20,000 nucleotides of DNA from an uncultured virus (IMG/VR IMGVR_UViG_3300002231_004964) (taxonomy: Duplodnaviria; Heunggongvirae; Uroviricota; Caudoviricetes): the IMG/VR virus record IMGVR_UViG_3300002231_004964, one strand, 5' to 3'. Position 1 is the first letter of the stretch. Each line of letters opens with the position of its first letter. The notes under the pieces were generated by a model. The model did no database searches. It saw only the letters and a program-made list of their open reading frames with translations, and was not told where the DNA came from. Both the position numbers and the translations under genes were made by a program. Shown piece by piece: positions 1,153-19,971 of this stretch.

Positions 1153-2901
1153 TTAACTTTCTAATTCGTCAAGGATACCGTCGCCATCATCATCCGTGTC
1201 GATGTAATCAGAGACGCCATCATTGTCGTGGTCAAATTGACCTGTCATGTTGTTACCGTCGTTGTTTTCGAACCAGTCAGAAAGACCGTCGTTATCATCG
1301 TCGGTATCAGTTGCGTCCCAAATACCATCATTGTCGTGGTCGTAACGATACTCACCCCAAGAACCGCCTACTTCATCCACGTCTAAAATGTTATCGTTGT
1401 CGTCGTCAGTATCAACTGAATCATTTAGACCATCATTATCGTGGTCACGACTTGCATCAGACCCATTTTCATATACGTCATTACGATTATCGATACCATC
1501 ATTATCGATATCAAAATCGAATCTGTCTTGGATGCCATCATTATCGTGGTCATAAATATCAGTGTTTGGATTACCATCGTTCACTTCTTCATCATCATTG
1601 ATACCATCGCCATCATCGTCATTATCTTCATGGTCGTCAATACCATCATTGTCGTGGTCGTTTGGCGATTCGTCTTGGGAATCAGGGATTCCATCGTTAT
1701 CATCATCATTGTCTAATACATCGGGGATGCCGTCGCCATCGTTGTCATTGTCACCGTTTTGTTCCTGGTTGTCAATTTGTTGACCTTGTTGTTGGTCTGA
1801 TTGTTGACCTTGTTGACCTTGTTGCCCATTCTGAGTTTGACCTTGCTGTTGTTGGTTTTGACCATTTTGGTTCTGACCACCTTGGTTTTGTTGCTCTTGT
1901 TGACCTTGTTGACCACCTTGCTCACCACCATTTTGTTGCTGACCTTGACCGTTATCTTGTTGTTGACCTTGCTGACCTTGCTGACCTTGCTGACCACTTT
2001 GGCCTTGTCCAGTTTGTTGTCCTTGTTGGCCTGCTTGTCCCTGTTGGCCTTGCTGACCTTGCTGTCCTTGCTGGCCTTGCTGACCTTGTTGACCTTGACC
2101 TTGTCCCTGCCCTTGACCTTGTCCCTGGTTCTGACCTTGCCCCTGACCTTGTCCTTGACCTTGACCCTGGCCCTGACCTTGGCCTTGACCTTGGCCTTNA
2201 CCTTGGCCTTGTCCTTGGCCTTGTCCTTGGCCCTGTCCTTGGCCTTGTCCTTGTCCTTGTCCTTGGCCTTGTCCTTGGCCTTGTCCTTGGCCTTGACCCT
2301 GTCCTTGACCTTGTCCTTGTCCTTGGCCTTCACCTTGTCCATTGTCGTTGGATTCGCCACCGCCTTCTGTACCTCCATTACCTGAACCTGCTTGAGATTC
2401 TTGATAATCAGGGTCATAAGCATCGGGAATTCCATCACCATCGGAGTCACTAAACTCTCCATCATTCGGGTCGTTAGGATACGGGTCGCTACCATCTGGT
2501 TTACCGTCACCATCAGTGTCGGCTGAGTTTGGGTTTGTTCCGCGTTGATATTCTTGCGAGTTAGTTAACCCGTCACCATCAGGGTCTCCATTGGCATCTC
2601 CACCATTCAGTGGGTCTAAACCATGATTAACTTCCCAACCATCGGGTAATCCGTCGCCATCAGTATCGGGATTATTGAAATTCGTTCCTTCGTTTTGTTC
2701 TTCCGCATTAGTTAAACCGTCACCGTCCCAATCGGCCCCACCATCAGATGGGTCTAAGGGGTCAGTGCCGTCAGCCGCCACCACACCTGCAGACATTGCA
2801 AGCATAAGGGCAGTCAAAATTGTTAACAATACGCGCTTCGTTCTAGATTCTTTTACATTCTCCATATTTTCACTTACTTGTGTTCGTTCTAGGAAACCCA
2901 C
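1153..2901 (-). CDS. Secreted or membrane-anchored acidic Ca-binding repeat protein (thrombospondin type 3-like DxDxDG repeats) with a central Gly-Gln low-complexity linker
   Basis: N-terminal basic plus hydrophobic segment (KRVLLTILTALMLAMSAGVVAA) is signal-peptide-like. N-terminal repeats are DxDGDGL/GTNP...DTDGDG and C-terminal repeats are DHDNDG/DDDNDG, with (GQ)n and GQQ tracts between them. The start could be GTG 2901 (GAGGAG upstream) or ATG 2865. Confidence 0.8.
   Translation of the reverse strand: MGFLERTQVSENMENVKESRTKRVLLTILTALMLAMSAGVVAADGTDPLDPSDGGADWDGDGLTNAEEQNEGTNFNNPDTDGDGLPDGWEVNHGLDPLNGGDANGDPDGDGLTNSQEYQRGTNPNSADTDGDGKPDGSDPYPNDPNDGEFSDSDGDGIPDAYDPDYQESQAGSGNGGTEGGGESNDNGQGEGQGQGQGQGQGQGQGQGQGQGQGQGQGQGQGQGQGQGQGQGQGXGQGQGQGQGQGQGQGQGQGQGQNQGQGQGQGQGQGQQGQQGQQGQQGQQGQQGQAGQQGQQTGQGQSGQQGQQGQQGQQQDNGQGQQQNGGEQGGQQGQQEQQNQGGQNQNGQNQQQQGQTQNGQQGQQGQQSDQQQGQQIDNQEQNGDNDNDGDGIPDVLDNDDDNDGIPDSQDESPNDHDNDGIDDHEDNDDDGDGINDDEEVNDGNPNTDIYDHDNDGIQDRFDFDIDNDGIDNRNDVYENGSDASRDHDNDGLNDSVDTDDDNDNILDVDEVGGSWGEYRYDHDNDGIWDATDTDDDNDGLSDWFENNDGNNMTGQFDHDNDGVSDYIDTDDDGDGILDELES
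1780..2094 (-). repeat. Degenerate 9-bp coding repeat encoding Gly-Gln-Gln and a Q/N-rich tract
   Basis: Plus-strand units such as ccttgctga/ccttgttga translate to GQQGQQGQQ... on the minus strand. Confidence 0.85.
2095..2340 (-). repeat. Coding tandem repeat, 6-bp unit (plus-strand ccttgt/ccttgg/ccttga) encoding (Gly-Gln)n
   Basis: Directly visible hexamer array whose third codon positions vary synonymously, so the repeat is maintained at the protein level. Confidence 0.95.
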
Positions 2902-4034: not shown

Positions 4035-4058
4035 ACTTAAGATAACCGACGCGACTAT

Positions 4059-4865
4059 TTAGTGTTGTCGTTCTGGAACCCAATGCGTAGTTCGCTTGTC
4101 TCGAGTTTCTTCTCGAACCACTCGAAAACCTTCAGGGTCTGTCTTTCGACGATAAACTAAGAACTTAAAATTATACGTTCCTGTTGAACCATCAGGTAAC
4201 TCATAGGTAGATATCCTCGCACCGCGTGAAGCGTATGAGGCTCTAATCACCCACTTCGTTTCCTGGTTTAATCGAACTAATTCTTCATCGGTTAAACTAC
4301 TATTCACCCTATGTGGCGAAATTCCTGCTCGATACAAAGCCTCGGCCTTGATGTAATTGCCAACACCTGCTAAGACCTTTTGGTCCATCAGTGATTGCAC
4401 CACAGTTCGATTAGGATAGCGCCTCATACAATGCATGAAAGTTTCATCGGAAACATCTTCGGCCAAAATATCAGGACCTAACGAGGCTAACTTTTTCTCA
4501 AACTCATCATTCGAGGAACAAAATCTAAAAGTTCCGAAACGCCGCATATCTTTGTAATGCATCTTTCCTTTCGAAGTATGAAACGTCAACATAGTATGCT
4601 TGACCTTATTCTTTCGCCAAGTTCCCGACATGCCTAATGTATTCCACACAGTCCATCCATTCTCTAAGGTAAAGTAAATAAACTTACCTTTGCATTGTAC
4701 GGATTCGATTTGCAATGGGAGGGCGGATTGAAACTCCGCCACCTCCCCTCGCAGTTGCTTTTCCCCATATCGAGGAACAACGACTTCAATAGATTCTAAA
4801 GTAGTATCCTGGAAAAAATCGTTGATACGTTCTGTAATCCGTTTTACTTCGGGACCTTCAGGCAC
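4059..4865 (-). CDS. Fpg/Nei-family DNA glycosylase/AP lyase, zinc-less finger type
   Basis: True start is GTG 4865, giving MPEGPEV (catalytic Pro2/Glu3), with a GAGGTG RBS at 4872-4877. Other motifs: KGKF, LGMSG, DMRRFG, LGPD and the H2TH motif LMDQKVLAGVGNYIKAEALY. The C-terminus RTTHWVPERQ has no Zn-binding Cys. The 290-aa ORF in the track starts too early. Confidence 0.93.
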   Translation of the reverse strand: MPEGPEVKRITERINDFFQDTTLESIEVVVPRYGEKQLRGEVAEFQSALPLQIESVQCKGKFIYFTLENGWTVWNTLGMSGTWRKNKVKHTMLTFHTSKGKMHYKDMRRFGTFRFCSSNDEFEKKLASLGPDILAEDVSDETFMHCMRRYPNRTVVQSLMDQKVLAGVGNYIKAEALYRAGISPHRVNSSLTDEELVRLNQETKWVIRASYASRGARISTYELPDGSTGTYNFKFLVYRRKTDPEGFRVVREETRDKRTTHWVPERQH

Positions 4866-5790: not shown

Positions 5791-5811
5791 ACGAAGGAAT
5801 AATCTCATCAA

Positions 5812-5820
5812 CTATATAAT
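5812..5820 (-). promoter_or_regulatory. Archaeal TATA-like box ATTATATAG
   Basis: Located at -30..-22 relative to ATG 5790, the same spacing as the boxes before 6465, 10140 and 19069. Confidence 0.65.
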
Positions 5821-5825
5821 ACGTT

Positions 5826-6413
5826 CTATTCTAGACGAACCGTTCGCCACTCGACATGTCCTGCCTCAATCAAGTCCCGTATACGCCGTTGTTTCGTAGT
5901 CAAATTAGATTTGCCCGCCTTAACATCTAAGAATACTACTTTACCATCAAGTAAATTATCTTCTTTATTCGTCGAGTAGTGCCAAACTATGTAGTCGATA
6001 GGACTACCTAAGAATGACCAATTTTCAATCTTCCAATCGGTATCAATTTCAGGATGGTCTAGAAACGGAGCCCATTTTTCAAGGGCTTGGCCTTTCGAAG
6101 TAGCCTGTGAAGCCGCACGTCCTTTTTGATGGCGAACTTCATTGTGCAAACGCTCTATTTCATTGATGTAAGTGTCAATCATTTCTGATTGACGGTCACG
6201 TTCCGTGCGTAGTTCTGATAATTGCGCTCGTTGTTCTGCCAAACTAGATTCGAACGTTTGCGTCACGAGTTCCACATTCGCGTCGGATTGTTCGAGTGTT
6301 CGCAGTTCGTCGGCGTGACGTTGTTTTAGGGTTTGAATGAAATGCCAAGAGACTAAGCCGATAAAAAGAGCGAAAACGAGGAAATAGAACCACATGCAAG
6401 TACGGTATCGCAT
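5826..6413 (-). CDS. Membrane-anchored endonuclease related to archaeal Holliday junction resolvase (Endonuc_Holl-like, PD-(D/E)xK)
   Basis: N-terminal TM and coiled coil, followed by FLGSPIDYIVW...VVFLDVKAGKSNLTTKQRRIRDLIEAGHVEW, the family signature FLGxPxDxxxF...F.EVKxG...L...Q..IR..I..G.V.W. Confidence 0.88.
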   Translation of the reverse strand: MRYRTCMWFYFLVFALFIGLVSWHFIQTLKQRHADELRTLEQSDANVELVTQTFESSLAEQRAQLSELRTERDRQSEMIDTYINEIERLHNEVRHQKGRAASQATSKGQALEKWAPFLDHPEIDTDWKIENWSFLGSPIDYIVWHYSTNKEDNLLDGKVVFLDVKAGKSNLTTKQRRIRDLIEAGHVEWRTVRLE

Positions 6414-6435: not shown

Positions 6436-6444
6436 TTTATATAG
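6436..6444. promoter_or_regulatory. Shared bidirectional archaeal TATA box (TTTATATA / TATATAAA)
   Basis: Sits in the 51-bp divergent gap, at -29..-22 to ATG 6465 (+) and -30..-23 to ATG 6413 (-). Confidence 0.7.
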
Positions 6445-6464
6445 TAGAATGACGTAGAACAAGT

Positions 6465-7109: not shown

Positions 7110-7888
7110 TTACGAGTTTGAATTTCCCGCAATCCATTTCATGGCTACACCGATATCGTTCACCCGATTACGAACAGTCTCTCTTTAAAGGCATTCCGAT
7201 TACTTATCGGTATCATCCTGCCGTTCTACGATTGATTAGGGGTGATAACGAACGAGGAGTAAGACTACGTCCAAGATATCGAGGCAAGTCGAAACCCGAT
7301 ATCGGGTATAAGCGACGCCAAAGTTATGTAACCGAGGAGTTTGCAGATACCTTTGCATTATACCCTGTTTCAAATTATCGAGCAGAGACATCTTTAAGTA
7401 GTCGAACGGCTGAAACTACTAGTATGAACGAACCTGTCACTTATCCTGTCGGTAATGGAAATGTCATCGGTAGCCACTCTGCTCAAGATTTTGTATGGGC
7501 AGGACGAGCCGAGGGCGCTCAAGAACAAGCCACTGGCGAAACTGCTACTCACACTCCAATGTCGGAAGAACCTTACACTGGACCAATCACTGAACCTCTT
7601 GGTTCGGATGTTCACTTTGGGGCTGAAGGAAGAAAGATGAGTTGGCCTATGGCCTTTGGTATTGTCGGAGTTGTCGTTGCTATTACAGGAGTCGTATCAT
7701 TAATATTCGGAAAATGGATTGAAGACGTTCCTGTAATTGGTAGTGTGGTCAAGGCCGTTCGTTCCTCTTGGGATGCTAAGAACACACCACAAGCCATTTG
7801 GATGTTGTCTACTATTGCATTAGTGGGTTATCTAGGTGCGTATACTTGGGTTAATCAAATGCAACTTCGTGCTAGATTAGCAGTTTAA
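7106..7888 (+). CDS. Hypothetical membrane protein with several x-x-A-E motifs and two C-terminal TM helices
   Basis: GGAGG RBS upstream. Basic N-terminal domain, then NYRAE, SRTAE, AGRAE and HFGAE in a low-complexity linker, then two hydrophobic helices. Confidence 0.75.
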   Translation: MITSLNFPQSISWLHRYRSPDYEQSLFKGIPITYRYHPAVLRLIRGDNERGVRLRPRYRGKSKPDIGYKRRQSYVTEEFADTFALYPVSNYRAETSLSSRTAETTSMNEPVTYPVGNGNVIGSHSAQDFVWAGRAEGAQEQATGETATHTPMSEEPYTGPITEPLGSDVHFGAEGRKMSWPMAFGIVGVVVAITGVVSLIFGKWIEDVPVIGSVVKAVRSSWDAKNTPQAIWMLSTIALVGYLGAYTWVNQMQLRARLAV

Positions 7889-8049: not shown

Positions 8050-10140
8050 TCACTCGTAATCGCGAATGGCCACGCCGACAGGGAATCTAGGCACTCCATC
8101 GTCCGTCAATTCAAAGAATTTGACCGTTAGCATTTTACCAATGTAATCGGAACCATTTTCGAAATACGCTCGACGAACTTCTCGTGTTCCTTCGGGTCGA
8201 ACTCGGAATTCTTGACCTGCNTCGGTTTTAACAATCCAAACNACAGTNCCTTGGTCGTTACCACTGGCTTCATCAAAGCCAATGATTTCATATTCGGCAT
8301 CTTGGAACGTCTTGAACTTTTGCAAATGCTTAGAACGCTTGTTTAAGTCGTAAGTTCCTTGCAAGTTGCGAATCATGACGCCTTCGAAATCTTCGTCTCC
8401 TGTAAATTGTTGATGCAAAGCACCTAAATCGGCAGGACCTCGGAGAGGGAAATTCTCGGTCAAAACAAGATTGCCCATGCGTCGCCCTGTCGCAGACGTA
8501 CTCGAAGGAAATAAAGCCGCCAATTTCGAGTATCGGTCTAAGAAAGTAGCCTTGGGTTCGTCAAGTAAAATGGCATCATACAAACGATAATCAATTTGCT
8601 TCATTTTATCTTCATCGCTGATAATATGAACGGTTTCCGTCATCGGCTTTCCTGTTTCAGGGTCTAAGCGACCATCATTAGTCGGTACTTCTTCATCCCT
8701 CGCAGGTTTCAAAGTCTCTCTTCGAACCAATCCAGTTGCTTCTTGAAATGTTAACGAGTCCGAGTAAACTTCTCCATCAAGCACCATATTCGGTTCAATG
8801 TTCAAAGCCTTGATTTGGTCACGCAAATGCTCGAGATGAGGGAAATCCTTACCTTTTCGAGTCATGAGACGAACGGAGCCATCAGCCTGTGTAATCGCCA
8901 AACAACGGACACCATCAAACTTTCTTTGGGCGACGGCAGGATACTGAATATCATGACTTCGCTTTTCGAAATTGTGAGCCAACATCGGCAAGACGACAAG
9001 ATTATTCAAGGCTTCTTCCTTCGTTAGGAAATAACCTTCATCTTGCTTCTTTTTGAATTTAGAATCGGCTTCGAGTTCTGCTTGTTCAAGAGCCGTTCGA
9101 TTAACCTTTCCTTCGGTAATCAACTTGCCACGACCTTGCGTGATAGCACCATCAACCTTTCCACTAGCCGTAGTGAGGAGATATCCTCCTTCTTCTTGCG
9201 GCAACAGCAAAACTTGCCATTGTTGTAGTGTTCCTGTTGCGGTTTTCTTGTAAATTACGGGGTATTGCTTCACTTGCTTCACTTCCTCTGCTTGGAACGT
9301 AGTCGTTACTTGGTTATAACGGTTTCGCAAACATGTGCGTGTTTCTGTTAATAATTGTTCTAATTCGATAGTCGTCAAACCATACGAAGAATCCCGCTCC
9401 CAGGAAGATTCAATGTCATCGTAGATGCGAGAACGTAAGAAAGAATCTTCAGGGCTATCAAGGCGACAAGCATCTAATTGCAAAGAATTGCTTTTCGCCC
9501 ATAATTCACCCTGTAATTCACCCCGAGGTTCTACCCAATAAACATCACAATCGAAAATATACATCAAATATATATCATACTTTTTAACGAAACCGAAATT
9601 CTCAACTCGTAAATCAGATACGATGACAGGCAACCGCGTCATAACATCACGCCGAAATGGTTGAAAAATAGGGTCAAGATTAGTTTCAGGTCGTTCCCAT
9701 AAAACCGCATCCCATTCCGTAGGTAAGGCAGGGATTTGATAAACTAAGTAATTCCAACGTCGTATATCAGTAGACGTCGAATTTAGTAATTCATCAAGGC
9801 GATTCATCGGTCGAATTGTGGCCATGTCGAAATGACCGCTCATTCGGTTTAGACCCATGAAAAATTCTTCATCATCAATCGCTCCTGTTTCCAAACGAGT
9901 TATCGGAATAAAATTTTGTAACGGGACACTGCGCTGTTGAAATTTAAACGCTTCTTCTAAAAATAACGCCGTGGCTAAATTTCGACAATCCGAAAGCGTA
10001 AAATCACCAGTTTCATGAGCAGGCCAACAAAGTAATTTTAGATAATATTTATCATCCTCGAAAAAGGTAGTGATTTGAGTACTCCCTGTAGTATTGACGA
10101 CATATTTAACATCATTTGTAAACAACTTATCGAGCAACAT
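8050..10140 (-). CDS. Polyprotein C: unknown N-terminal domain (~285 aa), FQAE junction, then a viral-type ATP-dependent DNA ligase
   Basis: Ligase motifs: I QRKFDGVRC, III VLDGEVY, IIIa RLYDAI, IV EGVMIRN, V LQKFKTFQDAE, VI GVPRFPV. The phage-ligase-like N-terminus (YKKTATGTLQQWQV) begins right after TTFQAEE at ~9290. Confidence 0.93.
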   Translation of the reverse strand: MLLDKLFTNDVKYVVNTTGSTQITTFFEDDKYYLKLLCWPAHETGDFTLSDCRNLATALFLEEAFKFQQRSVPLQNFIPITRLETGAIDDEEFFMGLNRMSGHFDMATIRPMNRLDELLNSTSTDIRRWNYLVYQIPALPTEWDAVLWERPETNLDPIFQPFRRDVMTRLPVIVSDLRVENFGFVKKYDIYLMYIFDCDVYWVEPRGELQGELWAKSNSLQLDACRLDSPEDSFLRSRIYDDIESSWERDSSYGLTTIELEQLLTETRTCLRNRYNQVTTTFQAEEVKQVKQYPVIYKKTATGTLQQWQVLLLPQEEGGYLLTTASGKVDGAITQGRGKLITEGKVNRTALEQAELEADSKFKKKQDEGYFLTKEEALNNLVVLPMLAHNFEKRSHDIQYPAVAQRKFDGVRCLAITQADGSVRLMTRKGKDFPHLEHLRDQIKALNIEPNMVLDGEVYSDSLTFQEATGLVRRETLKPARDEEVPTNDGRLDPETGKPMTETVHIISDEDKMKQIDYRLYDAILLDEPKATFLDRYSKLAALFPSSTSATGRRMGNLVLTENFPLRGPADLGALHQQFTGDEDFEGVMIRNLQGTYDLNKRSKHLQKFKTFQDAEYEIIGFDEASGNDQXTXVWIVKTXAGQEFRVRPEGTREVRRAYFENGSDYIGKMLTVKFFELTDDGVPRFPVGVAIRDYE

Positions 10141-10161
10141 ACTTTAACACACCTTTGACAA

Positions 10162-10170
10162 CTATTTAAA
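10162..10170 (-). promoter_or_regulatory. Archaeal TATA-like box TTTAAATAG overlapping the upstream gene's TAA stop
   Basis: Located at -30..-22 relative to ATG 10140. Confidence 0.7.
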
Positions 10171-10733
10171 TTCTTTCATGAGGAAACCAAATCCCAACGC
10201 CGCCTGCTTCGCGCCATTCAGCGATTGTACCCGCGTGGTCATCGAGTAAAACGTCACCTGGTTGACAGTAATCAACCTTTTGCTGTCGAGGTACGACAAT
10301 TACTTCAACATCAAGGCCTAAACGGTCTCGCACCCAAGCCCGTTTATCTTCTATCGAATAATCATTCGTACCTCCAATAGGAGCGGATAAGAATGAAAAT
10401 GGACGTCCACTAGCAATGATTTCGTCTAAAACGTCACGATTTATAACTTCTAAATTGTAAAAGAAATCGGGCTCGGAGGCGATTTTATACAACATACGGT
10501 CGATAACTTTCTTTTTAATAGGGTCATGAGATAATGATAAATCAAAATCCCGTTCAGTAACAGATGTAATTCCTAATTCCTTAGCCTTCCTCGCCGCCCG
10601 ACGCAAACTTTTCGAGGAAATTTCGGATACATCTTGAACATGCAACACATCATTAACTCGTTGAGTGATAGCCCCTGCGAAATCCGCAAAACATCCATCC
10701 ATATCTAAGTAAAGGTGAGGTTCGTCTACGGTT
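10166..10733 (-). other. Domain: HAD-superfamily 5'(3')-deoxyribonucleotidase-like (NT5C-like)
   Basis: LYLDMDGCFADF (motif I DxD), FLSAP (motif II), K, and LLDDHAGTIAEWREAGGVGI (motif IV). Starts after TYIAE. Confidence 0.88.
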
Positions 10734-13700
10734 TCGGCGATGTAAGTCGTTGGCTTCATGATGATTTCGAATTCAGGTTTCTCTAAGAAAAACAAACAAG
10801 AAATTAAGGTAGCAAACCAATCGATGTCTTCGACAGGAACGTCTTTTTCAATGAGGTAATCTTTTTGAGAACGCGCCCCATCCCATTCATATGTCCAAGT
10901 GTAAATTTCGGGATGAAGTGACCAATGTGAACCGTAAGTAAATTGATATTTATTCCGAGAAAGCGTTCGACCAGGAACGGCATCATTACGGACAGATATC
11001 CAACGATAGGCTTTTAAACTGAAATCATTAAATTGACTCGTGATAATTTCATTCAATTGTTTGCTTCCATAGGTAGTCGAAGTTAGTCTAGAATTCATCC
11101 ATTGAATCCAACGTAAAACCGCGTAATAGAAGAAATAATTTATCGTGCCATTAGTTTGGAAATCTTCAATAATTCTCGAAACGACAACGAGTTCTTCATC
11201 ATAATCATCAAAAAATTCATCAAAATCATTAATATATTCCTCAATGAGTATTTCATCTAAACTACCTCCTATAAAATTAGGCTCGGTAATTTTAAAAGCG
11301 ACGGCGCTAAGAGTGTGATAGACCTCAATTGCCTTTTGAAATTCAGTAGTAGATACCTCTCTAAAGCCTGTTTCCCGTTCCTGTTTAGCCCAGTCTACTA
11401 TTTCATACCATTTAACTAAGGCTTTATCCCAAGCATCTCCAACAGTTTTAGAAGTTTCCTCTTCTGCTCGCCGAGACTCTGAGCCCCAATCTACAGTGAT
11501 GTATTTTAAAGGAATCGGTTGTTTAATACAAACCGAGTAAACGGACAGATAACTCGCTTGCCAATCCGCAAGGTCTTGAGGGCTGTAAGGTATGGTTTTC
11601 GTGGCTTGATTTGATTTGACTAAATCTTGGAAATCTGTGATGAACCAATTCCAAGAACCATAGTGCCAACCTTCGCGAACTTCCGCAGGTTGCCAATCAG
11701 CAGGAGCGTAACGACGGTATAAGTCGTCTTCTAAGACAGCCATGCCTAAATCATACATCGTTGTATCGGCTTGTAAATACTGGTCAGCCGTGGCTTGGTC
11801 GGGGAAAGTGATTTCTAAGACAACACCACCTGCCTTGATGTCGGGGTGGTCGTCTTCGATTTCCCCNATGGCTAAATCAATATAGGTGTCAGGCATGTCG
11901 ATATCATATCCATGCGAACTAGTCAAACAACCTGTGCGTAGTTCACCCGAGGCTTGAATGGCTCGCCAATTTCGGACACTCGTGCCGTGATATAAGCGAA
12001 GTGGGTAACTGATATCCTGCTCGGAATCGGCACGGAAATATCGCGAGACGTCGTCTTCCGACCATTCCCATTCTTCTTCAACTTCGATGTATTCGGGTGG
12101 TATCAGTTCGTCCGTAGACCACTCCCAAGACGGTTCAGGTCCGTCAGGCTCGAAAGTCTTCACCACACGACGTTCCTCGAACCATTCCACAGGTAAATCA
12201 ATACGAAGAACGGCATAACCCGATAACCACTCATCGCCGTATCTCTCGTCTGTCATTTCTTCCCAAATGAAACTGTCCTGCATCGACTCTCGTTCGCCAA
12301 ACAAATAAACTCTTGGTTCAAGTTCCATGCCTTCACTTCTTGGTCCAATGCGAGGTTCTAATCCTGTTTCTAAGATATTAGAAATTTGGTCAAGTGGAGT
12401 AACATGATACAGTGAAATCTTAACTTCGTTTTCCGCTAAGAATACGTTTTCATTGACGGCTACTTCCCATTCAGGTTCTCGTCCGTAAGCCATCACGAGT
12501 AGAGTAGTAAACCAGTCTACATCCGTGTATGGAATCTGTTTTTCCATTATGTATGGTTTACCGTAATGACTTGGAAAATCATCCGACCACTCGAAACCAG
12601 GTAATAATGACCAATGCGCTCCATAGGATTCGTAATTGTATTTCAATCGTTGTTCTCTATTCTCCATTCTTCTCGCATCGCCGATTCGCATGGAAAGTGG
12701 GAAAATCGTCATTCGTCGTAATTGCGGAACTTCTCCTTCAGGTAATGAAAAAGCCCTGTAAAGAGTAACTTCCCCAGATGCAAATTGAGGTTTCAATGTA
12801 GTTCGTAAACTTCGTAATCGCCCTAAATACTGCTCGGCTAATTGACTTAAACGATTAATTGTATAAGCGTATCGCAAGCGAATATCTAAATCAGGAGACT
12901 CCTCGAATGGACGAGTGAAATAGTCGCCTTCTTCGTATGTTTCACCACGTTCCTCGTCAGTATAACCATCAGTTTCACCGTCCTCATCCACGAAGATACC
13001 CCGAATCTTCGAAAACGTAAGTAGGGTTGCGTAAATCATCAGGATAAGCATCATAGGCGCTGTCATCTCCAGAAGACCAAAGTAAACTGCCTGGTCGAGT
13101 TAACCTCGCTAAGTGCGATTCTACGTCACGTAATCTTGCACGACCTGCCGCATCATCATGCAAATCGGAAACATCATACAATTCTTTTTGATTGTCACTC
13201 CACCAACTAAACTCTTTAAATAACTACCGTGACCTCGGCAGNCACCTTGTTGAATTCCTGTTCGAAATCGGAAGTGTTGGATTCGGCTGAATATTCCTCG
13301 CTTACTCGTGGTGTAATTGTTAATGTAGCCATCCCGTAGGCTTCATCGGCAGTAGTCGAAGGTATAAAAGCAGGCCACCTAACTAAAATGACAGGTCGGT
13401 CATAATTTAAAACTTCATGGATATAGAATTCATCGTCTTCGGAGGTCGTTTGAAAATACTCTCCTGTGTTGTAAAACGTCACAGAGGCTTCATTAAAATG
13501 AACGAAATCTCTTCGAGGCTTTGTCTCACTCAAAAAGCCTTTAGGGACTCTTTTCGGAAACACATATCGTTCATAAGCATATCGATTACTTGGTAGGTCT
13601 AACAGTAAGTCGAGAGGATTTTCATCGAGAGCGTATTCGTAACCACTCCAACTTTCTTGCCCATCTTCCCAAATGATAATATCTAAATTCACATCAACCC

Positions 13701-13954
13701 TAGTAGCATCTAATTTCTCTAAGGCCTGTGCTAGTTCGACAATAACATGATGAGATTCATGTTCTTGACGACGCAGTTCATCACACTCGCGACACAAGAC
13801 ACCGTAATTACTACCCTTAAACGTAAGTTAAACAAGGCCAACACTGGGCTTGATTGGCAGGATTGTTAAGACTACGAGGTACAGGATAATCTAAATTAGC
13901 CGTCAATCGAAGGTCTGTGGTTTCACCACAACGACTACACTCTAATTCCGTCAT
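10166..13954 (-). CDS. Polyprotein B (~1261 aa after removing 3 apparent single-base insertions): Zn finger, unknown domains, four ART-like domains, HAD 5'(3')-nucleotidase
   Basis: Joins a 45-aa ORF (13954-13817, ATGA-coupled, GAGGTG RBS, CSRC and CWPC), the 193-aa, 65-aa and 966-aa ORFs. The junctions are +1 shifts at ~13825 (AA), 13218-13220 (AAA) and 12999-13002 (CCCC). The repaired reading is continuous (...AEVTVVIKEFSWWSDNQKELYDV..., ...FEDSGIFVDEDGE...) and resembles the N-terminus of the paralogous ART-like domains. Confidence 0.75.
10735..11460 (-). other. Domain: ART-like, R-S-ExE type paralog
   Basis: AYRW...YGSHWS...YLIEKDVPVEDIDWFAT...PEFEI, bounded by SRRAE and TYIAE. Confidence 0.55.
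11465..12025 (-). other. Domain: ART-like, His-type (KptA/Tpt1-like fold)
   Basis: LRLYHGTSVRNWRAIQASG...VVLEITF...QPIPLKYI, bounded by YFRAD and SRRAE. Confidence 0.6.
12030..12430 (-). other. Domain: ART-like, His-type (KptA/Tpt1-like fold)
   Basis: LYHVTPLDQISNILETGLEP...RVYLF...AVLRIDL...ELIPPEYI, bounded by VFLAE and YFRAD. Confidence 0.7.
12435..13280 (-). other. Domain: ART-like, R-S-ExE type paralog
   Basis: LYRA...YGAHWS...YIMEKQIPYTDVDWFTT...PEWEV, bounded by EYSAE and VFLAE. Confidence 0.55.
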
Positions 13955-14925
13955 GCTTCCACCTCTTCACTTAAAAACACGCCACGTTTCGGAATGACTT
14001 CATATTCGGGTGAATCAAGCCATAGGGCGCTTGAAATAAGTGTGGAGTACCAATCTACATCGGCAGCAGGAATGGATTTTTCAATCACATAAGTACGCAC
14101 GTCAATTTTCTCTTCTGTCGGCATTCTCCAAGCCTTTTCGAAGGGAGATAAGGTTACTTCTCGTTCTTTAAGAACGACGTCTTCTTGCGCCAATCTCCAC
14201 ATATCAGTTCGAGTGTAGGCATCGGGTGAAAGAGACCAACACGGACCGTAAGACAAGGCTTCGAGTCCTTTTCGAACTGACACTACAGTCCCTCCTGCCG
14301 TTCCTGTCGATATACGGTCAACNTCACCGTAGCCACCATAGTAATTTACGTCAACAGGACGCATTCGATTACGCAAGCGACGGACAGGTTCGTCGTCTTG
14401 CGAAGTCGCCAACCATCGATTAGATTTTAACTTCCGTTTCATCGCGTTGCGATTCAATGATGTCGGGTAGTTCGGACAGGGGGTCCTGCATAACCACTAG
14501 GGAAGACAAATTGTTTACGTTCTCCGATTCTTTCAAGTAACCCGCCATATAGGGAATTGATTTGCATGACTGCATACCAGTAAAAAGCGTAATTTATCTC
14601 GTTGGAAAGCCAAAAATATCCTGTTCCGTTTCTTTTTTTCCTGCATCAATTTTTTGTTGCCATTCTTCTTCCGCACCTGCAGGCAAAGTGAACATATCAC
14701 TCCACCGATAAATAGGCTCCGTTTCGTACCACCATTCATCCCGCACGATATCGCCTGTAATCCCTGCAGGAATCATGAAACGTTGATAAACTTGCTTCGT
14801 TTTTTCGTAGTCTTCGAGAGTAACCTCGGAAAGGTCTTTGCTTCGTGGTTGAACGGCCTCGACATCTGCTTGAATCTCGGCTAAAGCAGTGTCGAAAGCC
14901 TCGCCGACGGTGAGGTCGATATCTT
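13951..14925 (-). other. Domain: ART-like, R-S-ExE type paralog (frameshifted)
   Basis: TVGEAFDTAL (compare TVGDAWDKAL in polyprotein B), restored IYRW, YGPCWS, YVIEKSIPAADVDWYST, PEYEV. Bounded by GFASE and VFLSE. Confidence 0.55.
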
Positions 14926-17900
14926 CGGATGCAAAACCCGTTTGCGTCGGTTGAGGCTCGACAGGATATATGCCTATCAAGCGTCGATACTCTTCGGGTA
15001 AATCTTTGATGGCTTCAATCAGTTCCGTTTCCGTACCTCGCTCTACGGCTAATAAATTAGGATTAGGGGCTTCGATTTCAAACACGATTTCTTCAGGATA
15101 AACGTATTCTCCAAGTTGGAGATTTCGACCGTATTGAGACGGTGAACGAGTCAAAGGTAACAACTCAATCTTAGCACCCTGTTTCAAACGAATTTCACAC
15201 TCTTCAGGCATGATGAGATTAGCATACCAAGATGACGTCCAATTAATATCTTCAAAATCTACTAATGCTCTAAGGATGAAAGCATCACCACCTCCACTCC
15301 AATGCGCTTCGGCCGCCTGTAAGACAGGAGTCCAATAAATTCCTGCACGAGCCGTGTTTAAATCTTCAGGACGGTTCATGGTGATTTCACGATAAAGTAA
15401 AATTTTGCCATCTCGATACTCGACTTCATGTGCTTTAGACCAAGATACTAAGTAGTTTTCATAACTGCCTTGGCGAGCGAACAACATATGATAGACTCTA
15501 TCTAACATATCATCGGAAATACCTCGAGCGATGGAACGTTCTTCGTCGACCAAGTTAGGATTCGCCGATTTCAATTCTTCGTAGTCCTTTTGAGATAACG
15601 GGGTTTCTAAATCGGGAAACAGGTATTCAAGACGTCCTTCTAATGCGTAAATATAGGTTTCATCTCCCATCATCTCCATGGCTTCCACATCTTCTAGCCA
15701 TTTATTGGAAGACTCATACTCGGTCACTTTAGCAATATATTTCCTCTCGAACTCAGATTTTCCTGCATCATCTTCCTCAGCCGCTCGAATCAATGCTTCG
15801 GGAGTTCCATCAATCGCAAACGACAAATCTAGCGGAACATCAACGAGTTCAATCGGAGCCCCGCNTTTTAGAACGATTTCTTTTTCATCAAAATCTTCTA
15901 AATGACTAAATGCTAAGGCTCGCAAAACTGTTGTGTACCAATCTATGGAGTCGACAGGAACTAAAGCAGTTAAAACATAAGAGTTAAACTCCGATTCATC
16001 TATGTTATCATAAATAAATCCTAAATTACGAGAGTGAATTTTCCTATGGCCAAAGTAACTCATTGCGGCGGCTCGAACAGGGGTCCAAGATTGACCCACT
16101 CCTGTTGGGTCGAAATCTTCGGGATTAACTAAGTCGATTCCTCGATACAATTTAAGTTTCCCTTGAGCATATTGCGAGTTCATCAATAGATTCTCGACAT
16201 ACTGCATGGCATCTTGAACGTAAGTAGAAAGTTCAGCATCACCCACACGAAGATGGGGAACATAATCTAAATCTCGCGCATCCGAAATCATTCGCTCGAA
16301 ATCCAACTTAAAAAAGGGCTCCGCTTGATTCCGATTATGATAAATGCCCCAACCTCCTGCCACGAGAGGCAACTCTCCTGCCAAGAATTTTTCCGACCAC
16401 TCCGCTAGTGCCTTCGAGAACATGGAATAACCATATTGGTCTCTTATGTCTTCATTCATGACTGCTTCTAAAGCAGGAGGTCCATACCATTTTTCTTCGG
16501 CCTTTTTAGTTTTCTGGTTCGTCTTGTCCTCGGGAACAGGGCGACTTTTTCGCATCCACCATACTTTACCATCTTTCGACTTCTTACTGCGTTCGAATGT
16601 GTAAGTTCCCGCATATTTACCCCCAATAAACTCTACTTTTAGTTTTTCATCGGGTTTCCATTCAATGATACGTCTTGTACCATGCGTTTCTAAAGAAACA
16701 GGTCCTGCACCGTAACTGTCCTTCGGAATTTCGCCTTCGAACCACCAGTAATCGAAAGGGTGGTCTTCGGTACGAATAACACTCACACCCTCGCCGATTT
16801 TCTTCGGCAAACGACTCTTTCCAAATCCTCTTCCAACAGGAACAAAAGACAAAAGTTTACCGTCTAATCCGATACGTATGTCTCTATGTGAGCCTCTCAT
16901 CGTAGCACGGTGCTTTTGCACAGAATACACATCCGAACCCTTGACTTTCATCGGAGGCTTTCGTCGAGAGGGCTTTAAATCCGTACCTCCTTCGACACCA
17001 GGTTCGGGAGTCGGCTTTTGACGCTTCTTCTTGTATTCAGTTTCAGCCGCCATTCCGATTCGCTTAAGTCCGTACTGTCCTGTGTAATCACGATTTAGTG
17101 AGAGTAGGTATCCGCCGTCTCCATCATCAGTTTCAAGCATAATTGTGCCCTGATATTCATCAACGTGGTCAACGTGTGGTGGATAATAAACTTGTCCGAA
17201 TTCTGTCGTTTCTAAATCAGATTTTGAAAAGTCATACCAATTTCCGACTTCTTCATCAGATTCATGAATAATTCCTTGACCAATCATGTAAGAAGCAGCG
17301 ACCTCGGGCACGTCCGAGACCCAAATCACGGCACTAGTCGGCTTAAGTTTGTATTTAGATTCCAAGGCTTTCATGTCTTCATACGGGTAATTGTCCCGTT
17401 CTCCCCTCAAATCAGTGCCGAGAGTTTCTGTGTCTAAAAACAATTGCCATGGATGCACATTACCTGAACTGTACCACGTTTTACTTGATTCAGCCCCCTT
17501 TCCAAGCGTCCAATTATCTAAGGCGGCCGAAACATCTTGACCCGAAAACAAATTGCTACGAGATTCTCGGATTTCGTCCCACGTCGAGGTTGTCCAATTC
17601 ACCGTCAAGTGGGCGGAAAGTAAGGGCCCTAATTCTACAAAACCACTTTCCGCTAAAATATCTTGAATAACGGGTCCTTCGACCCATCGTTCTTTCGCCC
17701 CTGTTCCGTAAGCATCATATGATTCTCCGTCGACGGTAACGACAACATGACCACCAATGAAGTCTTTACTCTCATAGTCTTCGAATGGATGAATATAGGC
17801 TAAGCCGATTTCATACACGGCGTCAGTATGACCTGCCTGTTGCAAAGCCTTCATTAATTGGTCGGCCAAAATACCACAATCTCCCCAGATGCATCGTTCC

Positions 17901-19069
17901 TTATCGGCGTCAGACAACTCGTCGAGACGACGTTGGATGAGGTCCTTAGCGGACGATTGCGTTTCAGCCGACATTTCACGTTCCACCTGTCTCGTGGCTA
18001 GTCCAATTTGTTGTATGCTTGGAACGTATCTCGTCTTGCCGTAACTGTCTCGAACGGATTTATAAAATAATCGTCGAGGAGTGCCACGATTTGCGGAGTC
18101 AGGTAAAGGTTCATCTAATTTAGCAAGTTGAATTCGAATACGACTTTTTAACTCCTTCATTTTTCGGCTTTCAGCCGAAAATGTTTCCTCGGCTTGTTTT
18201 GTCGTCGTAGTCGACAAATCCGAGAACCAAGCGTCAATGCGCTCTAATTCCTTCGGCAATCGTTTCAAGACTTCCTCGGGGTGCGCTCGCTTAAGTGGGT
18301 CGAAACGACGGAGTTGATTACGAGGAATGATAATGGAAACTAAGCCTGTATCACCGTGAATAGAAAGTGGAAATCGCAATGGAGCGCGATATTTGTTTTG
18401 CGGGTAGTCGATAGTAATCTGTCCTGCCACGTGAGCCGCCCCTGCGGCTAAGGGTAAGTCGGTGGCTTGACTTAACTCTTGTAAGACTTCTTTAGTTTCG
18501 GCATAGGTTCTAATTTGACCGTCTTTAGCCCAAACGTGGAAGGAAGAACCTGTAAAGTTAATAAGAGCGTCGTATCCATTTTCTCGAAACCAATTGTAAA
18601 CTTGTTCTACCGCCTCGAGTAATCGAGACCAGGCTTGTTTGCCGAAGTCGGCTTGGTCGATGTCTAAATCGACTTGAATAAACGGCATCTCGTCGCGTTG
18701 AACGTGGTAAATGGGTGCGAGGTAACTGAAACCTTTATTGAAGCCGTGTTGCCCTTTAAAACGACCCTTTCTCGCCATGAAATCCGCAATGTCTTGGTCG
18801 GATTCCATCACAATATCAATTTTATCTCCTGCGTCGTTTGGTACAAGTCGTTTAACAATGAATTGAGGACGATTATCTTCAGGACTCCAACGCTTGGAAT
18901 AGGTTTGATACATTAAAGGTAATCCCTTCACTCGAGCAAGCATTTCAGGCAATACGTGTTCATAGTAGGCGAGTCGACGGTCTTGGGCGAGGCGAGCCTC
19001 GTCACCGACCGCATATTCAAAGAGCGAACGGTAGTTCGCCCTTGAAGTATCCTCGGCACGGAATAGCAT
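13951..19069 (-). CDS. Polyprotein A (~1705 aa after repairing 3 single-base indels): LigD-type primase-polymerase, small basic domain, Cys-His-Asp domain, unknown domain, LigD 3'-phosphoesterase, three ART-like domains
   Basis: The 1491-aa ORF (14594-19069) continues into the 168-aa ORF (13951-14457). Shifts are -1 at ~14612-14639, +1 at 14479-14483 and +1 at 14420-14421. The repair gives ...WLSNEINYAFYWYAVMQINSL...GPLSELPDIIESQRDETEVKIYRWLATS..., which matches polyprotein B's GTINYFFYYAVLRWI...QLNEIITSQFNDFSLKAYRWISV. Confidence 0.82.
15045..15775 (-). other. Domain: ART-like, R-S/T-ExE type paralog
   Basis: ILLYREI...PEDL...GIYWTP...AA...FILRALVDFEDINW...EECEIRLKQGAKIEL. Starts after IRAAE. 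Confidence 0.55.
15780..16495 (-). other. Domain: ART-like, R-S-ExE type paralog
   Basis: LKLYRGI...PEDF...GQSWTP...AA...YVLTALVPVDSIDW...DEKEIVLKXGAPIEL, bounded by TKKAE and IRAAE. Confidence 0.6.
16500..17040 (-). other. Domain: LigD 3'-phosphoesterase (PE)
   Basis: YSVQKHRAT...HRDIRIGLDGKLLSF...IRTEDHPFDYWWFEGEIPKDSYGAGPV matches the LigD-PE signature QxHxA...HxDxRL...EDHPxxY..FEG.IP...YGAG.V. Bounded by MAAE and KKAE. Confidence 0.92.
17495..17962 (-). other. Domain: papain/transglutaminase-like Cys-His-Asp fold
   Basis: WGDCGILADQL (Cys at a helix start), then GGHVVVTVDGESYDAYG (His and Asp on a beta hairpin). Bounded by EMSAE and GKGAE. Confidence 0.55.
18200..19050 (-). other. Domain: archaeo-eukaryotic primase (LigD-Pol / Prim-Pol type) polymerase
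   Basis: LAYYEHVLPEMLARVKGLPL (LigD-Pol N-terminal helix), IQVDLDID (motif I), FTGSSFHVW (motif II), ITIDYPQN (motif III), LRFPLSIH. Bounded by MLFRAE and KQAEETFSAE. Confidence 0.88.
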
Positions 19070-19090
19070 GTGTGTTCATCACCGTTACTA

Positions 19091-19099
19091 CTACTTAAA
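19091..19099 (-). promoter_or_regulatory. Archaeal TATA-like box TTTAAGTAG
   Basis: Located at -30..-22 relative to ATG 19069, adjacent to the upstream gene's stop codon. Confidence 0.65.
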
Positions 19100-19100
19100 T

Positions 19101-19940
19101 TTAAGGATAATTCAGCGTCTTGAAAACGGGGTGGTCTCGACAGAATAGCAAGTATTTTAAGGTTCGACCTATTCTCACCGCCCGAATCCAACTTTCTCTA
19201 TCTTTATAATAATAGAATCCCATCTTCGGTTCACTTCTACCTTTCGAGATAACGAAGTATTCGCCTGTTTCAACGTCATGCCAAGAGAAATTAAGGTAGT
19301 AATCCGTTGAACCCCCACCATAACTAGGTACAGTAAGAGAACTGCTTAACAAGTAATTGTTACCCGATAACCACTTATCATCTAAATTCTCATAAATTTC
19401 CCCTTTATTGCGAACTAATCTATCTGTGACTACAAGCGGTGTAGGTAATTGCCCTTTACTATAAGCCTCTTGTATCAGTAATGCGTAAGCCTTCATCTTT
19501 TCACGGTCTTCCTGTCGATACGATTTCAAATCTAAATAACCTATGAAAGGACTGTAGTAAGTGCACTGATTCCCATTGATAATCCAAGTCTCATCACGAC
19601 TCCAATAGTAAGTAACAGGTAATCCATCAGGAAGTGGATAAGTATTTTCAATACCTGGGTTAGCAGTAATCCAACCAGTTCCAGTACCCCAACGCCTTAC
19701 AGAAGAAATCGTTTGGAGATTACTCTCACGTTCCTCGCCTCGAGCCTGTCGCCAATCTTCTCCAAGTACTTCGTCCCAATCAAAAGTAACGTAGTATCTA
19801 TCTCGTATATTAACGCCCCGATAAACAAGAGGATAATCGGGTAAGTCGAACAATGTACGTAAAACCTCCCATACTCGAGTAAACCGAGGTAAGAGATATT
19901 CAACTTCCTCGCGGTCGAAATACCAACCATTCCTAACCAT
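19101..19940 (-). CDS. Hypothetical protein
   Basis: 279-aa Tyr/Trp-rich ORF with a TATA-like box at the usual spacing. No family recognised. Confidence 0.7.
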   Translation of the reverse strand: MVRNGWYFDREEVEYLLPRFTRVWEVLRTLFDLPDYPLVYRGVNIRDRYYVTFDWDEVLGEDWRQARGEERESNLQTISSVRRWGTGTGWITANPGIENTYPLPDGLPVTYYWSRDETWIINGNQCTYYSPFIGYLDLKSYRQEDREKMKAYALLIQEAYSKGQLPTPLVVTDRLVRNKGEIYENLDDKWLSGNNYLLSSSLTVPSYGGGSTDYYLNFSWHDVETGEYFVISKGRSEPKMGFYYYKDRESWIRAVRIGRTLKYLLFCRDHPVFKTLNYP

Positions 19941-19962
19941 AAGGTTAGTTTTGGCCGTTCGA

Positions 19963-19971
19963 CTACTTAAT
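19963..19971 (-). promoter_or_regulatory. Archaeal TATA-like box ATTAAGTAG
   Basis: Located at -31..-23 relative to ATG 19940. Confidence 0.55.

Follow-up and report, generated by a model that had tools for sequence, protein, structure and literature searches.

Portable x-x-[A/S]-E module endings in a candidate self-processing polyprotein from an uncultured marine element

In a 20-kb stretch of DNA from an uncultured virus record (IMG/VR IMGVR_UViG_3300002231_004964), referred to at its full length as the window, the minus strand from 8050 to 19069 encodes a tandem array of unrelated protein modules that end in the same short motif, x-x-[A/S]-E, hereafter the tag. This array is built of autonomous cassettes whose content varies between close relatives and within sequencing runs, and the tag is a portable module ending under protein-level constraint. 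The reading that we consider probable, if only just, is that the region specifies one hyper-modular, self-processing polyprotein of about fifteen to twenty exchangeable enzyme modules, whose tails would be cut after Glu and whose embedded Cys-His-Asp module (CHD) would be the likely protease. An initial annotation of this DNA had described three tandem polyproteins with domains delimited by the motif and had proposed that they are cut after it. Its observation is confirmed by our analysis and its interpretation is partly supported.

A modular array with recurrent tails

Relatives of the array were collected as 12 homologous proteins (P series, from a word-indexed search) and 14 metagenomic loci (L series, from a contig scan). 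The 12 true relatives are 910-2284 amino acids (aa) long; they derive from marine data, and their contigs reach lengths of up to 176 kb. Depending on the relative, the same precursor is encoded by one, two or three open reading frames (ORFs). The window and L002 have three genes, A is fused to B in P0003 and B to the ligase in P0012, and the whole array forms a single ORF in L005 (3197 aa), L007 (3081 aa) and L008 (3596 aa), where it spans M(L)FRAED... to the ligase end ...AIRDYE. The genes and modules of the window are the following, with coordinates in the window.

Gene A, 13951..19069, minus strand: first polyprotein, with leader, PrimPol, A2, CHD, A4, LigD-PE, ARTa, ARTb and ARTc
19052..19069, minus: leader MLFRAE, ending in the tag; variants MFRAE, MLFQAE and MLFHAE in relatives
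18170..19051, minus: primase-polymerase (PrimPol) of LigD type; double-tag tail KQAE-ETFSAE; in 19/19 sequences holding the N-terminus
17963..18169, minus: A2, 69 aa, no function assigned; tail EMSAE; in some relatives and missing from others, precisely from tag to tag
17489..17962, minus: CHD, 158 aa, candidate processing protease; tail GKGAE
17042..17488, minus: A4, 149 aa, no function assigned; tail IGMAAE; not in P0001, L005 and L007, with junctions at tags
16496..17041, minus: LigD 3'-phosphoesterase (PE); tail KTKKAE; firm match to PF13298 (E = 6.6e-11)
15776..16495, minus: ARTa, 240 aa, putative ADP-ribosyltransferase (ART); tail LIRAAE; one or two copies in relatives
14924..15775, minus: ARTb, 284 aa, putative ART; tail TGFASE; extra modules of relatives inserted directly after this tail
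13966..14923, minus: ARTc, about 315 aa in relatives; tail GVFLSE; frameshifts in the record
Gene B, 10166..13954, minus strand: second polyprotein, with ZnF, ARTd, HYE1, HYE2, ARTe and NT5C
13282..13954, minus: Zn finger (ZnF) with CxxC pairs; tail EEYSAE
12431..13281, minus: ARTd, putative R-S-ExE ART; tail NVFLAE
12026..12430, minus: HYE1 (LYHVTP..); tail RYFRAD; a 235-aa module inserted after the tail in P0012, L005 and L008
11462..12025, minus: HYE2 (RLYHGTS..); tail SRRAE
10733..11461, minus: ARTe, putative R-S-ExE ART; tail TTYIAE
10166..10732, minus: NT5C / HAD 5'-deoxyribonucleotidase (firm), the C-terminus of gene B
Gene C, 8050..10140, minus strand: module C1 (tail TTFQAE), then an ATP-dependent DNA ligase
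9286..10140, minus: C1, 285 aa, no function assigned; only in the three-gene forms (window, L002)

Among the relatives the order of modules is kept and the modules are optional, with 8 to 16 of them per ORF: PrimPol-[A2]-CHD-[A4 or ZnF]-[GNAT]-[PE]-[ParB-like]-ARTa(1-2 copies)-[WWF]-[TGK]-[ARTb]-[HYE3/HYE4]-[QIF]-ARTc-(stop, ZnF)-ARTd-HYE1-[FGMP]-[HYE2]-ARTe-NT5C-[C1]-ligase. The Zn-finger module is not present in P0003, P0007, P0012, L005, L007 and L008, where A is fused to B. The phosphoesterase is deleted in L009, with the junction ..GLAE-TKKSE.., and in P0012, L005, L007 and L008 the ligase follows NT5C directly via ..TTTYQAE, without C1. Seeds cut at the motif were recovered at full length in relatives (PE 182/182, ARTb 284/284, ARTc 315/315, ARTd 287/287, A4 149/149). 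These end-to-end alignments and the presence or absence of modules in relatives bear out the earlier description of the genes as modular cassettes with a recurring x-x-[A/S]-E.

All 17 motif sites listed in the initial annotation were found in place in the minus-strand translation, with P1 codons at 19052, 18188, 18170, 17963, 17489, 17042, 16496, 15776, 14924, 13966, 13525, 13282, 12431, 12026, 11462, 10733 and 9286. When one tail was taken for each of 22 unrelated module types, P1 was Glu in 21/22 and Asp in 1/22, and P2 was Ala (16), Ser (5) or Gly (1). P4 was F (9), M (3), K (3), R (2), Y (2), W (2) or L (1), a set with a background frequency of 0.34. P1' was E, D, S or T in 19/22 tails, and P3 was L or I in 4/22 and A, S or G in 9/22. 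P4 played no part in defining the borders, and in the 3596-aa ORF of L008 a residue of the P4 set precedes 12/13 boundary [AS]E versus 6/33 interior ones (Fisher p = 5e-6). Each module type has its own tail (e.g., ..REMSAE, ..IGMAAE, ..KTKKAE, ..LIRAAE, ..TGFASE, ..GVFLSE, ..NVFLAE, ..TTYIAE, ..TTFQAE, ..GFGLRAE, ..DYFDAE), and the residues after the tail depend on which module comes next. A tag also occurs at about residues 3-6 of gene A, and the stop of gene A lies four residues past one. Taken together, the pattern fits a Glu-specific processing site. Because tag codons differ (GCC, GCT, GCG and GCA for Ala, TCC and AGT from two Ser families, GAA and GAG for Glu), the constraint acts on the protein; a DNA-level recombination signal at the tags is unlikely and was rejected on the same ground. 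One of the listed sites, GFLSE near 13530, has no indel support as a boundary, and a divergent homolog is without the motif.

The divergent relatives P0008, P0009 and L014 begin with MARD, without the leader tag. The leader MLFRAE (19052-19069) resembles the HYE1 tail ..RYFRAD (12026-12043; RYFRAE in L002), and a module tail may have given rise to the beginning of gene A.

Insertions and deletions were located in sequence pairs that share two collinear BLASTP segments of high identity, adjoining in one member and at least 40 residues apart in the other. The 96 raw events reduce to 25 insert classes, hence 50 ends. Exact coincidence with [AS][ED] was found for 31/50 insert ends, whereas 2000 random placements gave a mean of 6.7 and a maximum of 15. 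Within 2 residues of the motif the count rises to 36/50 (null mean 10.6, maximum 23) and within 6 residues to 41/50 (null mean 16.9, maximum 27). Under the strict rule that both ends fall on the motif, 11/25 classes qualify versus 0.22 expected; homologous contigs do gain or lose modules at the motifs, which the initial annotation had itself proposed as a test. The classes are partly dependent, one module being seen in several pairs, and three of them are spurious alignments between paralogous ART modules. Manual grouping gives 13 distinct real events, 12 of which have both ends at a tag or a few residues off. In L011 (about 10230-10290), HYE2 and ARTe are deleted and the ends lie beside tags, with ..SAPNSSELE joined to PHLYLDMDG; not every rearrangement uses the tags.

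Linkers are a natural place for such indels, and the array could in principle encode giant multidomain enzymes that stay uncut, with tails that serve as connectors kept for structure (helix capping, docking) and linkers that tolerate breaks. Transfer without processing is described for the virion RNA polymerase of N4 and for several polyvalent proteins of plasmids (PMC5512222, section 8), and AE is frequent in these proteins generally (355 observed, 274 expected from composition). We nevertheless find this account improbable. It leaves 22 unrelated modules converging on the same P1, the same P2 and a restricted P4, each followed by sequence that varies freely with the next module, and a linker would not need an invariant Glu. 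Moreover, a tag stands at the extreme N-terminus, where nothing gets connected, and genes split at or after a tag that is retained.

Gene structure in the record and in other assemblies

Three polyproteins had been read from this DNA. Three genes are present, but A and B as read cross frameshifts and the record has five minus-strand ORFs between 8050 and 19069 (14594-19069, 13951-14457, 13216-13797, 10166-13066 and 8050-10140). Three-frame translation and tblastn of homologs indicate that minus-strand coding runs on across frame changes near 14610, 14470, 14423, 13825, 13225 and 13000, and the homologs P0001-P0003 are uninterrupted through the region where gene A breaks. Contigs from four public runs were aligned to window positions 12900-14700 (labels X1, X2 and X3). 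One base fewer was found at 14612, 14608, 14474 and 14420 in contigs of X1, X2 and X3, and at 13822 in those of X1 and X2. At 13226, X1 and X3 have one base fewer and X2 two fewer, and at 13001 the X2 contigs have one base fewer. The extra single bases of the record, at least seven between about 13001 and 14612, split genes A and B and yield the five ORFs; elsewhere in the 11-kb region none was seen. Since contigs of the other runs are without these bases, the frameshifts are a property of this record and not of the gene, and the five ORFs are really three genes, A, B and C.

The window also holds nine single Ns, and together with at least seven frameshifts between 12999 and 14612 they might suggest a decaying pseudogene or a chimeric assembly in which the motif is incidental. 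We regard such an artefact as very improbable, given that the extra bases are absent from the contigs of three other runs and that at least 14 independent metagenomic loci and 12 database proteins show unbroken ORFs of 2000-3600 aa carrying these modules and tags.

Once the frames are restored, gene A ends in ...VFLSEEVEA followed by a stop that is identical in P0001, P0002 and L002. The ATG of gene B, at 13954, overlaps the stop of gene A (ATGA); the frameshifts of gene B near 13822, 13226 and 13001 are not in other assemblies, and its unbroken equivalent in L002 is 1262 aa long. Shine-Dalgarno-like sites (GGTG or GAGGTG) lie a few bases 5' of all three gene starts, which indicates a prokaryotic kind of translation. 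Contigs of X1 and X3 skip 13269-13964, that is, the Zn-finger module with the stop and restart, and have 16 other letters in between, which gives a fused A-B as in P0003 and P0007. Further X1 contigs map inside that stretch and over the border between it and gene A.

A promoter-like box, YTAWRTAGTNG (e.g., TTAAATAGTAG), occurs nine times in the window versus 0.27 expected, and most copies lie about 10-40 bases 5' of gene starts in the orientation of the gene.

All boxes: 2932-2942, 4052-4062, 5809-5819, 5987-5997, 6437-6447, 7394-7404, 10159-10169, 19088-19098, 19960-19970
19088..19098, minus: box TTAAGTAGTAG upstream of gene A, then Shine-Dalgarno-like GGTGAT
10159..10169, minus: box TTAAATAGTTG upstream of gene C

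No box stands before gene B, and a box before A but not B fits A and B as a single transcription unit. The box, which is rich in AT and resembles a TATA box, could be a promoter of archaeal type or one specific to the element.

Candidate protease and enzymatic cargo

In the processing model that we favour, each cassette tail, [F/Y/W/M/L/K/R]-x-[A/S]-E, would be an endoproteolytic site cut after Glu, and cutting would release the precursor as about 15 separate proteins. As the tag travels with its cassette, modules could be gained, lost or duplicated without disturbing processing. With less confidence, we propose that the protease would be the embedded CHD module.

CHD is present in every relative holding the region, directly after the primase-polymerase or the optional A2. 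Residues C29, H72, D83, K90, R92 and W93 are invariant across 15 sequences, one of them only 28% identical, and a profile search of 1.84 billion representatives returned only 8 proteins. In an AF2 model of the module (pLDDT 76.7, pTM 0.68), a helix bears C29, and strands bear H72 and D83. The fold rows obtained with VIA-align were VASH1 (Z 6.2, rmsd 5.1, 121 aligned), vasohibin 6j4s (Z 5.0), the putative Bacteroidales protease 3kd4 (4.9), LapG (4.6), protein-glutaminase (4.4) and the CPR-C4 cysteine protease (4.4), and the top rows are all Cys-His-Asp enzymes of transglutaminase-like kind. The consistent fold list and the invariant triad make it a reasonable hypothesis that CHD is a transglutaminase-like cysteine protease cutting the tags, a candidacy that the initial annotation, which did list the Cys-His-Asp domain, had missed. 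The 606-aa protein P0021 bears a distant CHD relative (28% identity) and the motifs FNSE, FNSE, FSSE and SNSE at apparent module borders, so that module and tag co-occur in a distant lineage. P0021 is a different, smaller multidomain protein, with a weak, sub-threshold DUF7130 match at its zinc-ribbon end. A complex prediction for CHD with a 40-residue stretch spanning a tag scored 0.02, which counts neither for nor against the proposal.

Several points weigh against this model. Cutting at the tags is inferred from sequence throughout. Interior [AS]E is common, a correction to the initial annotation, accounting for 12/21 in the 1491-aa ORF and 33/46 in L008, where P4 is permissive in 6 of those 33. 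Site variants T-E, G-E and A-D occur, the tail TTT[FY]QAE stays with the downstream ligase whichever module precedes it, and the L011 deletion starts at least 17 residues past a tag. As for CHD, its fold Z scores are weak (6.2-4.2), and a Z under 8 can reflect a common arrangement. Foldseek searches with the module against PDB and BFVD gave no row at E <= 0.001, and it had no Pfam match at E up to 10 except noise and no PDB sequence match. It could equally be a host-directed effector, e.g., a deamidase. Finally, the carrier may be a virus, a plasmid or a cell.

The cassettes released by processing would comprise LigD-type enzymes with the ligase at the far end, a deoxyribonucleotidase, PARP-like and putative R-S-ExE ART modules, and a Zn finger. 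Besides the phosphoesterase, firm assignments were obtained for NT5C (PF06941, 25.7 bits, cut-off 24.8; phrog_2643, 6.5e-18) and for the ligase (PF01068 and PF14743; phrog_114, 2.2e-68). The assignment of the primase-polymerase is supported, by a match to PF21686 (LigD_Prim-Pol) with 33.3 bits in P0008 (cut-off 27.4) and below the cut-off, with 17-27 bits, in P0001, P0002, P0006 and P0009. The polyprotein carries three LigD activity types (POL, PE and LIG), from its first module to its last. Like bacterial LigD, it unites a PF21686-like primase-polymerase, a PF13298 phosphoesterase and an ATP-dependent ligase. Unlike in bacterial LigD, a non-homologous end-joining enzyme that has its three domains contiguous in one chain and Ku as partner, the three activities lie up to about 2500 residues apart, with other modules and tags between them, and the ligase comes with the small OB_2 domain PF14743, the LigD-type PF04679 not being matched. 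No Ku family match was found among the window proteins. Some mycobacteriophages use Ku together with host LigD to circularise their genomes.

ARTc, ARTd and ARTe have in common the invariant pattern YR..YGxxWS..EK..DW..ExE, in the order expected of an R-S-ExE ART, and R153, S181 and E230-x-E232 are invariant in 18 sequences. None of the three has a Pfam, PHROG or PDB sequence match, and ARTa has no Pfam or PHROG match. For ARTe, an AF2 model (pLDDT 70.3) gave VIA-align rows that covered only the helical N-terminal half and top Foldseek rows to Vis ART that are insignificant (E = 0.73, TM 0.18). The name ART is therefore used for ARTa-ARTe at the level of motifs and as a putative one; for the R-S-E type modules, the ART-like label of the initial annotation is likewise a motif-level one. 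A PARP catalytic domain (PF00644) was matched by HYE3 of P0002, a module not in the window, with 27.8 bits (cut-off 26.7). Modules of the HYE1/HYE2 type gave weak PARP (16.2 bits, L002) and Tpt1 (19.3 bits) matches in homologs, both below cut-off, and the ParB-like module of relatives gave a weak GmrSD_N match. The likely role of the array would lie in mending DNA ends and taking over the host. Speculatively, the cargo would combine an end-repair kit (polymerase, phosphoesterase, ligase and nucleotidase) with an ART-based host-modification kit, both acting early after entry.

The carrying element and known systems

The element is prokaryotic and marine, probably extrachromosomal or viral, with a weak pointer to Poseidoniales; the carrier of the array would be an uncultured marine prokaryotic mobile element or virus. 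Scans with Pfam, PHROGs and NCBIfam over the window and 10 kb upstream in relatives (about 38 kb) found no capsid, portal, terminase or prohead protease gene and no plasmid, prophage or conjugative hallmark gene, and a tRNA scan of the window and 10 loci found none. Within reach of our searches the family was not found in IMG/VR (single protein, alignment), the window end had no exact match there, the polyprotein was unmatched in GenBank phages by DNA and by protein, and an alignment of PrimPol had no match in GTDB (one genome per species). In GenBank phages, the ligase part matched only distant phage ligases (about 30-35% identity), and SufB matches were host flanks of prophage records. An affiliation with magroviruses was dropped, the polyprotein being unmatched in the phage collection; the magrovirus paper describes ligases and a prohead protease, and its available text no polyprotein or ART (PMC5434244). 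The surroundings of the array include the following.

Window 2-1105: SufB (TIGR01980 equivalog, 563 bits), without the usual suf operon neighbours
Window 1153-2901: thrombospondin type 3 repeat protein, 582 aa (PF18884, three stretches), adjoining SufB; probably secreted or surface-located
Window 19101-19940: ORFan of 279 aa immediately 5' of gene A, conserved in position in L001, L002 and L007; it matches no family, and its N-terminal region is without a tag
L007 684-2726, minus: conserved protein (about 680 aa) encoded 7-9 kb 5' of the polyprotein, with equivalents in L001, L002, L005, L006 and L012

Other window genes encode Fpg, a resolvase-like endonuclease and several ORFans. The 10 kb upstream in relatives hold genes for a SAP-domain protein, a SemiSWEET-like protein, MazG and two large proteins without assignment, one of them membrane-anchored. 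The conserved protein of about 680 aa is acidic in its N-terminal part, has a single transmembrane helix and contains repeats of the Cys-bearing unit GC(T)D..A.NYD..AT.DDGSC; it matches no family. The best GTDB match of SufB is in a Poseidoniales metagenome-assembled genome (MAG) at 73% identity (next best at most 67%), with no shared synteny and a GC content of 54% versus 43%. SufB could be a host-derived gene on a mobile element. A run labelled aquatic viral metagenome contains three short contigs with at least 99% identity to the window, and such contigs are also found in several marine metagenomes. For the archaeal virus of which the initial annotation spoke, the only pointers are the SufB match and the short contigs of that one viral-fraction run, and it is not established.

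These surroundings bear on another explanation, the reading of the initial annotation, in which a separate prohead protease of the T4 gp21, phiKZ gp175 or SPN3US gp245 kind cuts the tags in the virion, the enzymes are ejected with the DNA and CHD is an effector. P1 Glu is as for gp21 (L/I-X-E) and gp245 (A-X-E), as given in the available text of PMC9026906 and PMC10052503, the short leader with its terminal tag is reminiscent of the capsid-targeting propeptides of T4 and of the 7-residue propeptide of Alt (PMC9026906), and ARTs packaged in heads are a described theme (PMC9503650; PMC5512222). The three nearly identical contigs from the aquatic viral metagenome point the same way, as do the nearest language-model clusters of CHD, which are mostly viral (a lead only). 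We consider this explanation unlikely. Neither the capsid genes nor the prohead protease for which the initial annotation had proposed to search turned up in the Pfam, PHROGs and NCBIfam scans of the window and of 10 kb of upstream sequence from relatives, the neighbours being membrane proteins, SufB and Fpg, with no structural genes. In addition, the searches of IMG/VR and of GenBank phages gave no relatives, cellular DNA can be present in viral-fraction runs, and the tags have their invariant small residue at P2, not at P3.

Our preferred reading of a self-processing precursor extends, more tentatively and with less than even probability, to an RNA-virus-like strategy in an element possibly of marine Poseidoniales, which would combine a precursor of up to about 3600 residues, portable tags, an embedded transglutaminase-like cysteine protease and cassettes (NHEJ enzymes, many ADP-ribosyltransferases, nucleotidase, ParB-like, GNAT) that close strains could add, duplicate or lose with no need to evolve expression or processing anew. 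If the tags are cut, the array would be a clear case of polyprotein processing that organises a large enzyme arsenal in a prokaryotic DNA element. Natural presence and absence of modules already indicates which units are independent. If the reading is true, it would also provide a new pair of Glu-specific protease and tag of possible practical use, about 20 new protein families definable by their natural borders, and a testable model of polyvalent effector evolution by cassette exchange. LigD activities spread over the precursor suggest a ready-made end-joining kit that the element brings along, which bears on the survival of linear invading genomes facing host nucleases. Should the Poseidoniales link be true, a large polyvalent protein would be added to the archaea, where the available text of PMC5512222 reports a paucity of polyvalent proteins, nearly all large ones being bacterial.

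Our searches of open-access literature found no earlier description of a tagged cassette polyprotein, and no paper on Poseidoniales together with ADP-ribosyltransferase. Several known systems nonetheless share parts of the arrangement. CHD has the helix Cys and the strand His and Asp, in this order, of transglutaminase-like proteases such as vasohibin, LapG and the CPR cysteine protease, but no sequence similarity to them, and its protease role is a prediction only. Vasohibin cuts the Glu-Tyr bond at the tubulin C-terminus.

Prohead proteases act on short motifs with specificity for Glu, and a 7-residue propeptide is removed from Alt, an ART of T4 (PMC9026906; PMC10052503). Their substrates, as far as these sources describe them, resemble the array in their very short Glu motif, N-terminal propeptides, redundant sites and the presence of an ART (Alt) among the proteins that are processed and ejected. 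They differ in that the tags have a small residue at P2 and a preference at P4 and separate whole enzymes, not propeptides. The P3 rule of prohead motifs (L/I-X-E in T4, A(S/G)-X-E in giant phages) does not hold for the tags, so the array is not to be filed as a prohead-protease substrate, though it may work like one.

Polyproteins of eukaryotic viruses likewise give one product with a recurring short site and many mature proteins, and their protease may be embedded. The 3C-like and arterivirus-type proteases of RNA viruses cleave on the C-terminal side of Gln or Glu. Among double-stranded DNA viruses, African swine fever virus has the processed polyproteins pp220 and pp62. In contrast to these, the array is of prokaryotic type, its cargo serves repair and ADP-ribosylation and not a replicase or core shell, and its cassettes vary between close relatives.

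The closest described concept is the polyvalent protein, for which autoprocessing by embedded peptidases has been proposed (Iyer et al. 2017, PMC5512222). Such proteins are encoded by phages, prophages, plasmids or conjugative elements and enter the host along with the DNA, packaged in the virion or transferred. As in the proteins covered by the available text of that source, unrelated domains (ART, ParB-like, GNAT, PrimPol) share one chain in mosaic, fast-changing architectures, and the family has the 2 to at least 15 disparate domains per polypeptide by which polyvalent proteins are recognised. Their commonest hub domain is a zincin-like metallopeptidase, found in about 36% of members (PMC5512222), whereas window proteins and 8 long relatives gave no metallopeptidase Pfam match at E up to 0.05, a search that divergent versions could escape, and the candidate peptidase of the array is the Cys-His-Asp module. 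A uniform tag between modules also sets the array apart; the available text of PMC5512222 contains none of the words 'linker', 'transglutaminase' and 'LigD'. Compared with polyvalent proteins, the array is distinguished further by its length of up to about 3600 aa with 14-16 modules, by its LigD-derived end modules and possibly by its host domain, for which the single hint is archaeal.

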